A stretch of DNA of 64,000 nucleotides from NCBI GenBank assembly GCA_964016885.1, contig OZ024752.1, positions 33,728,001 through 33,792,000 of the forward strand, written 5' to 3'. This DNA is from Eledone cirrhosa (lineage: Eukaryota). Below, one piece after another: positions 59,259-59,645 of this stretch. The notes under the pieces are model-generated. The model was not told where the DNA came from. It ran no database searches and saw only the letters and a program-made list of their open reading frames with translations. Both the position numbers and the translations under genes were made by a program. How positions within the stretch are numbered: the stretch's first letter is position 1; every line of letters starts with the position of its first letter.

Positions 59259-59266
<8 letters not shown>

Positions 59267-59528
59267 AGATCAAAAGATGGTTAAAGGAGTTCCATATATT
59301 TTATTATGCGCATTTCAAAAACAAACATCATCATGCAATAATATTTGTGTTTTCATCAGATAAAACAGGAGAACATGATATGAAGGCTAGTGTTTTTTAG
59401 CCTTCATATCATGTTCTCCTGTTTTATCTGATGAAAACACAAATATTATTGCATGATGATGTTTGTTTTTGAAATGCGCATAATAAAATATATGGAACTC
59501 CTTTAACCATCTTTTGATCTTATATTAT
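59259..59528. ncRNA. Perfect inverted hammerhead pair, family B
   Basis: 131-bp perfect arms with an 8-nt spacer. TTTTAT-CTGATGA-long stem II-GAA-ATGCGCAT-A-ATAAAA (plus copy at 59422-59488). Confidence 0.8.
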
Positions 59529-59611
59529 GCATACTCCAGTCCCACAAACTGTAGAGTGCTACTTATCCGATATCTGCATTGCTTTATTGTACTACAATAA
59601 AACTCACCTCC

Positions 59612-59645
<34 letters not shown>

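Follow-up and report, generated by a model that had tools for sequence, protein, structure and literature searches.

The hammerhead hairpin at a locus of Eledone cirrhosa as one stub of a putative Hydra-clade Penelope-like retroelement whose inverted insertions pair a tailed with a tail-less end

The window analyzed in this study, a stretch of 64,000 nucleotides of Eledone cirrhosa (assembly GCA_964016885.1, contig OZ024752.1), contains two 131-bp arms that are exact reverse complements of each other with an 8-nt loop between them, and they surpass in length every other exact non-microsatellite inverted repeat on the list made for the window (Table 1). The preliminary description had reported the perfect arms, the 8-nt loop and a hammerhead on each strand, all of which the reverse complementarity and a motif scan confirmed; it had also placed the element end at 59612, and the true end is 59616, with 59529-59616 being the 88-nt tail of a family of elements. 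Both element ends adjoin (TA)n. Each arm corresponds to positions 3511-3641 of the reference locus (L031), with 99% identity for the left arm, and the loop GTGTTTTT is native sequence in another locus of the family (L048). The 29-nt junction of the window hairpin occurs once in the genome, and therefore this hairpin has not itself been amplified. A 31-codon frame starts at the ATG at 59527, at end-site 1 (window 59527-59616; L048:1966-2068), and in tandem copies this frame of the tail stops just past end-site 2, upstream of the main frame.

Table 1. Parts of the hairpin insertion, in window coordinates.
Feature	Position	Strand	Basis or remark
(TA)n target tract, left side	59231-59258	no strand	sequence
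Left arm: 5'-truncated tail-less copy of element 3' end (pLTR)	59259-59389	-	match to L031 reference
3' end of left arm	59259	-	family end-site 1
Type I hammerhead motif, mirror of + copy	59299-59365, core at 59359	-	pattern scan
Junction of the two copies	59389/59390		at most 1 shared base
Loop GTGTTTTT	59390-59397	+	8 extra 5' bases belonging to right-hand copy
Right arm: 5'-truncated copy of element 3' end (pLTR)	59398-59528	+	reference 3511-3641
Type I hammerhead motif	59422-59488	+	pattern scan and stems
Stem I	TTTTAT 59422-59427 / ATAAAA 59483-59488	+	
Hammerhead core CTGATGA	59428-59434	+	
Stem II, predicted 12 bp	within 59435-59470	+	
Hammerhead GAAA	59471-59474	+	
Palindromic stem III ATGCGCAT	59474-59481	+	
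Predicted cleavage site	after A59482	+	
88-nt tail	59529-59616	+	ends at family end-site 2; element end 59616
Bulged hairpin, predicted, just 3' of end-site 1	59529-59559	+	weak candidate for a reverse-transcriptase start signal
(TA)n target tract, right side	59617-59645	no strand	sequence

The hammerhead call depends on the motif, since Rfam at the gathering threshold gave no hits for the hairpin hammerheads. Within the loci fetched from the genome, GAAATGCGCATA was unchanged in 114 of the 115 copies matched. The dimeric cleavage suggested earlier from the palindromic stem III agrees with a stem III dimer predicted at -12.5 kcal/mol, and a palindromic helix III with dimeric cleavage has already been described for hammerheads of the Penelope-like kind (Cervera and de la Pena, 2014; PMC4209133). 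The minimal and dimeric Penelope-type hammerheads described there are of type I with a short palindromic helix III, as here, whereas the present motif has a long predicted stem II of 12 bp. Because the two hammerheads lie on opposite strands, they cannot dimerise via stem III within a single transcript. The full hairpin RNA was predicted to fold at -226 kcal/mol, compared with -32 kcal/mol for a single arm plus tail; read-through RNA would thus form the long double-stranded RNA that had been foreseen for a transcript, as one duplex sequestering both hammerhead motifs.

Several other repeats surround the hairpin. A small fold-back element with terminal inverted repeats of about 80 bp lies 170 bp to its left (58756-59086), and the pattern scan found no hammerhead core in it. 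The minus strand at 54050-54200 holds another type I hammerhead (core 54149), which belongs to a different family, has a longer stem III and is followed by TATTGAGTAC. An abundant SINE-like dispersed repeat is present at 60069-60225, 61624-61776 and many other places in the window, and a tandem array of 48-bp units occupies 60711-60950. Two opposite-oriented fragments at 35294-37030 may derive from a non-LTR retrotransposon, whose reverse transcriptase they resemble.

The preliminary description missed that this hairpin is the form in which members of a retroelement family insert, a family whose ends number in the thousands in this genome. The 32-nt hammerhead piece has 8,910 exact copies in the 3.0-Gb genome, the tail-less end motif occurs 5,650 times and one tailed variant motif 2,357 times. 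Among the first 100 matches listed, many consist of a minus copy followed by a plus copy 0.1-6 kb apart. We fetched the stretches around the first 100 matches listed (contig C1, 0.5-59 Mb). TA-type sequence follows nearly all of the 127 ends tabulated, the exceptions including three tandem continuations and L021.

The reference locus L031, whose 3' end is 99% identical to the window element, carries an uninterrupted frame of 821 residues (P0001, L031:1629-4094) with a reverse transcriptase (RT) together with a GIY-YIG endonuclease at its C-terminus. Its motifs were compared by eye with a published alignment and in an alignment with nine relatives. P0001 has a YRDD core and, at the C-terminus, IYE...YFG with R, H, E and N; it reads SDKT where DKG becomes DKT in the Hydra clade, and RWT at the RWK-motif position, at which seven of the nine aligned relatives have RWK or RWR. 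The linker CNCRIKNKC corresponds to CxCX5C, CNLC and CLH lie near the C-terminus, and, as read by eye, CCHH is absent and the GIY-YIG core lacks the cysteine pair. The best database relatives (25 proteins) are 31-42% identical and have these motifs in common. Pfam gave no significant match for P0001 or four relatives, and a PDB sequence search with P0001 returned nothing significant. Judged by these motifs, the element is assigned to the Hydra clade of Penelope-like retroelements (PLEs).

The other characters of the Hydra clade point in the same direction with one exception. The elements insert in (TA)n, and a canonical hammerhead, recognized by motif and stems, lies in the pLTR; L031 and L087 have a unit of about 3.7 kb, whereas Hydra-clade elements are generally shorter than 3 kb, a length that is worded as a tendency and stands beside a 3,045-bp entry among those given (Craig et al., 2021; PMC8557442). 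According to section 6 of the same paper, PLE anatomy comprises a 5'-truncated copy in inverted orientation and a tail that is often confined to one end, and the sampled loci contain tandems (L014, L048, L087) as well as 56 inverted pairs, 50 of them one-tailed. In the L048 tandem the tail continues straight into the next unit, and the window element therefore amounts to two pLTR regions standing back to back. Two other placements were rejected: the Naiad clade has an N-terminal endonuclease, DKA and no canonical hammerhead, whereas the present element has its endonuclease at the C-terminus, DKT at that motif and a hammerhead, and a non-LTR retrozyme would show a head-to-tail hammerhead tandem, whereas the two copies stand inverted.

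The Hydra clade as described by Craig et al. (2021; PMC8557442), including Hydra-1_Obim and Penelope-13_HM, shares with the present element a single frame encoding RT and C-terminal GIY-YIG, the motifs DKT, RW(T/K), CxCX5C, CxxC and CxH, the (TA)n target and a canonical hammerhead near the 3' end. In the supplement of that paper, Penelope-13_HM carries, as does the window element, a 5'-truncated copy in inverted orientation so that both strands have a hammerhead, and the octopus family Hydra-1_Obim has a hammerhead that differs from ours, which marks a different family. Besides its length, the present element differs from the Hydra clade in its tail (88 nt versus 30-40 nt) and in having about 70 inserted residues ahead of the linker. 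The window locus is a recent, doubly 5'-truncated stub that represents a new family within a clade already known, its shape is a known one, and it is ordinary, being one among many stubs of a Penelope-like retroelement.

A first regularity concerns the way the ends are combined. The sample of 62 loci (61 fetched and the window) comprised 56 inverted pairs and 15 unpaired ends with no partner within the stretch fetched. One tailed and one tail-less end were combined in 50 of the 56 pairs, five pairs were tailed on both sides and one on neither, whereas 27.9 mixed pairs are expected if the ends are independent (p = 3e-9). The same rule holds genome-wide among short hairpins, defined with exact patterns as having 306-326 nt between the site-1 motifs, patterns that miss mutated copies as well as the shorter hairpin of the window: 796 of 834 were mixed against about 417 expected. 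The exceptions were at most 22 with two tails, a count that includes at least one misclassified locus (L052), and 16 with none.

The two arms of a pair also belong together in sequence. Divergence was 1.3% within pairs and 3.2% between pairs (44 pairs; none of 5,000 permutations was as low), and at 12 shared variant columns 38 of 43 pairs agreed fully, compared with 16% by chance; the five pairs that did not agree fully include gaps and one probably mis-paired locus (L083). The window arm differs from both arms of L039 in 0 of 126 columns and from the other examined arms in a median of 2 columns (113 arms in all). A recent insertion, as proposed before, is therefore upheld by the near-identity to other arms and the low divergence within pairs, and "very young" is true only in a relative sense, identical arms being common in the family (23 of 44 pairs). 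Arm identity could also come from two RNAs of one source locus, from gene conversion between the arms or from polishing of the assembly. In L030, L038, L043 and L047 the inverted arms, 0.8-1.5 kb long, are nearly symmetric, so that long near-perfect palindromes have been retained in the genome.

The 5' ends of short arms cluster at reference positions 3471-3472, which lie roughly 70 nt upstream from the core of the hammerhead, and the window arms end 30-40 nt before this fixed stop. The stop is TTTTC|ATATG (L031:5090-5091), often with an extra G before it. Of the 11,215 genome-wide copies of the motif at reference 3472, 4,397 continue into the native upstream TTTTC and 2,123 carry G where the native base is C. 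The stop resembles an initiator consensus. A transcription start inside the pLTR is inferred because the 5' stop is fixed and carries an extra G, and an internal promoter has been documented in Drosophila Penelope (PMC2377424). The extra G could be an untemplated addition and not a copied cap. Two other origins of the truncated ends were considered: none of the 79 tabulated arm starts lies at the ribozyme cut, which rules it out as their source, and a circular template is disfavored for the family because the arms stop at one position with an extra G.

Considering the above results, we regard it as probable that two copies of the element's 3' end, both of them 5'-truncated, inserted back to back in a (TA)n tract to give the hairpin, for which both cut strands likely primed on the same RNA at two fixed internal sites 88 nt apart. 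Priming, the single template, the cap and the joining are deduced from the shapes of the insertions. A tandem source copy would be transcribed from a start inside its pLTR, and the RT/GIY-YIG protein would cut both strands of the (TA)n target, a step taken from the in vitro system of Poseidon_Ac (PAc; Frangieh et al., 2024; PMC11167929). One DNA end would prime at site 2 and give the tailed arm, the other at site 1 and give the tail-less arm; both cDNAs would extend until they fall off or reach the 5' end of the RNA, and their 3' ends would be joined and then filled in. In the window copy both cDNAs would have stopped early, 131 and 227 nt from their starts. With the complex on the upstream pLTR, the cDNAs would run off the capped 5' end after 170 and 258 nt and yield the short hairpins, the extra G being a copied cap. 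The ribozyme on each strand would be a passenger, the copied RNA not being cut at the ribozyme. Whether Penelope-like elements in general use such coordinated twin priming, with an asymmetric complex setting the two strands on sites 1 and 2 of one capped RNA, and with run-off at the upstream pLTR and joining giving the short hairpin, we judge to be evenly balanced.

Inverted segments also arise in LINE-1 by twin priming, when both target strands prime. There, each segment copies a different, non-overlapping part of the RNA, and no fixed position serves as the second start. Unlike LINE-1, both arms here copy the same stretch from two fixed sites. An experimental parallel is PAc, where both target strands were cut and extended, two internal RT starts bracketed the tail, and the copied RNA was uncut by the ribozyme (Frangieh et al., 2024; PMC11167929). 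PAc resembles the present element in a tail bracketed by two sites, in that hammerhead cleavage is unnecessary, and in a predicted dimer. It belongs to a different clade and shows no apparent difference in start site between the strands, whereas the genomic products here are mixed 95% of the time; inverted insertions are not addressed in the parts of that study used here.

Some observations weigh against this reading of the hairpin. The rule is broken by 6 of the 56 sampled pairs and 38 of the 834 short hairpins, some of which are misclassified (L052) or mis-paired, the tail is longer than the published 30-40 nt, and P0001 has no significant Pfam or PDB-sequence match. As to possible start signals, the bulged hairpin after end-site 1 folds at -8.0 kcal/mol with z -1.76, and 11 of 200 shuffles fold equally well; the 51-nt region after end-site 2 has no outstanding hairpin (z +0.43), so that a signal there is poorly supported by folding. 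Both regions contain RCTC...GAGY.

The identical arms and the one-of-each rule are accounted for equally well if the same element primed once, at site 2, after which the cDNA turned back or switched template, copied itself and was resolved at site 1, for example by the endonuclease. Section 6 of Craig et al. (2021; PMC8557442) explains the tail by a resolution step mediated by the endonuclease, perfect palindromy through CATATG is seen at many short junctions, and some of the long pairs come close to symmetry (L030, L038, L047). However, either arm may be much the longer, the tail-less one in L032, L033 and L079, and in L085, L063 and L078 the tail-less arm holds sequence that is absent from a tiny tailed arm and that copying of the tailed cDNA cannot yield unless the RNA is used a second time. 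Moreover, the extra G can precede both arms (L052), and both tail boundaries are RT start sites in vitro (PMC11167929). We consider a single priming with fold-back, the principal alternative, unlikely, although it retains some weight. Multiplication of the hairpin as a unit, as a non-autonomous fold-back DNA transposon or retrozyme, might be suggested by the large number and similar size of the short hairpins; it is largely refuted and very improbable, as the junctions vary between loci and that of the window is unique, the arms represent the 3' end of an element that encodes an RT, and the head-to-tail hammerhead tandem by which retrozymes are recognized in bioRxiv 2026.07.22.740005 is absent.

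An assembly or library fold-back artefact would fit the observation that no contig or read in the public runs X1, X2 (one sample) and X4, which are contigs, and X21, which consists of reduced-representation reads, covers 59360-59386 or the joint; runs X8-X20, which hold a small share of the sampled words, were left out of this comparison. The runs may come from other individuals and contigs show presence only, so this absence counts weakly against a real insertion. The palindrome ends exactly at the family's site 1 without including the flanks, the tail is on one side only, both sides meet (TA)n, and hundreds of loci repeat this design, their junctions differing, so that an artefact appears most unlikely. 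Little credence can likewise be given to a selected regulatory element whose read-through duplex silences the ribozyme or feeds small-RNA production or A-to-I editing. The predicted fold of the full hairpin (-226 kcal/mol) and the more than 800 similar hairpins, collectively a possible source of double-stranded RNA, would suit such a role, but the RNA runs, which hold only 0.04-0.07 of the sampled words, give no evidence of transcription, the unique junction indicates that the hairpin itself was not amplified, and its shape results from the way it inserted. The 22 open frames of at least 170 aa in the window include no evident host gene; short exons would be missed at this threshold. A selected regulatory role is therefore unsupported, and with it the function proposed earlier for the antisense arm in silencing, siRNA production, ADAR editing or cruciform extrusion. 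Twin priming at two fixed sites remains our preferred reading.

How PLEs make tandem and inverted insertions was named as an open question in the discussion of Craig et al. (2021; PMC8557442). What had already been published for PLEs comprises inverted copies with a truncated 5' end, tails on one side, the (TA)n target and the palindromic stem III; added here are the pairing rule, the finding that the arms are of the same subfamily variant, and the fixed 5' stop with its extra G. The titles and abstract openings searched do not state the one-of-each rule or the run-off at a capped G, which is weak evidence of novelty as subscription papers lie mostly outside that search. The family is young and abundant, with at least one copy carrying an uninterrupted 821-residue frame, and the family-wide pairing rule together with the fixed 5' stop is a useful, testable lead on PLE integration. 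If coordinated twin priming is true, a single rule would account for the hundreds of short hairpins as well as for the inverted copy and the tail on one side. The near-strict rule of one tail and no tail is one that any in vitro system has to reproduce, and the single published in vitro study saw no strand difference in start site. The RTs of PLEs are the sister group of telomerase RTs (PMC8557442), and this place gives the choice of internal start a wider interest. For the host, the near-perfect hairpins, more than 800 in number, might supply double-stranded RNA.
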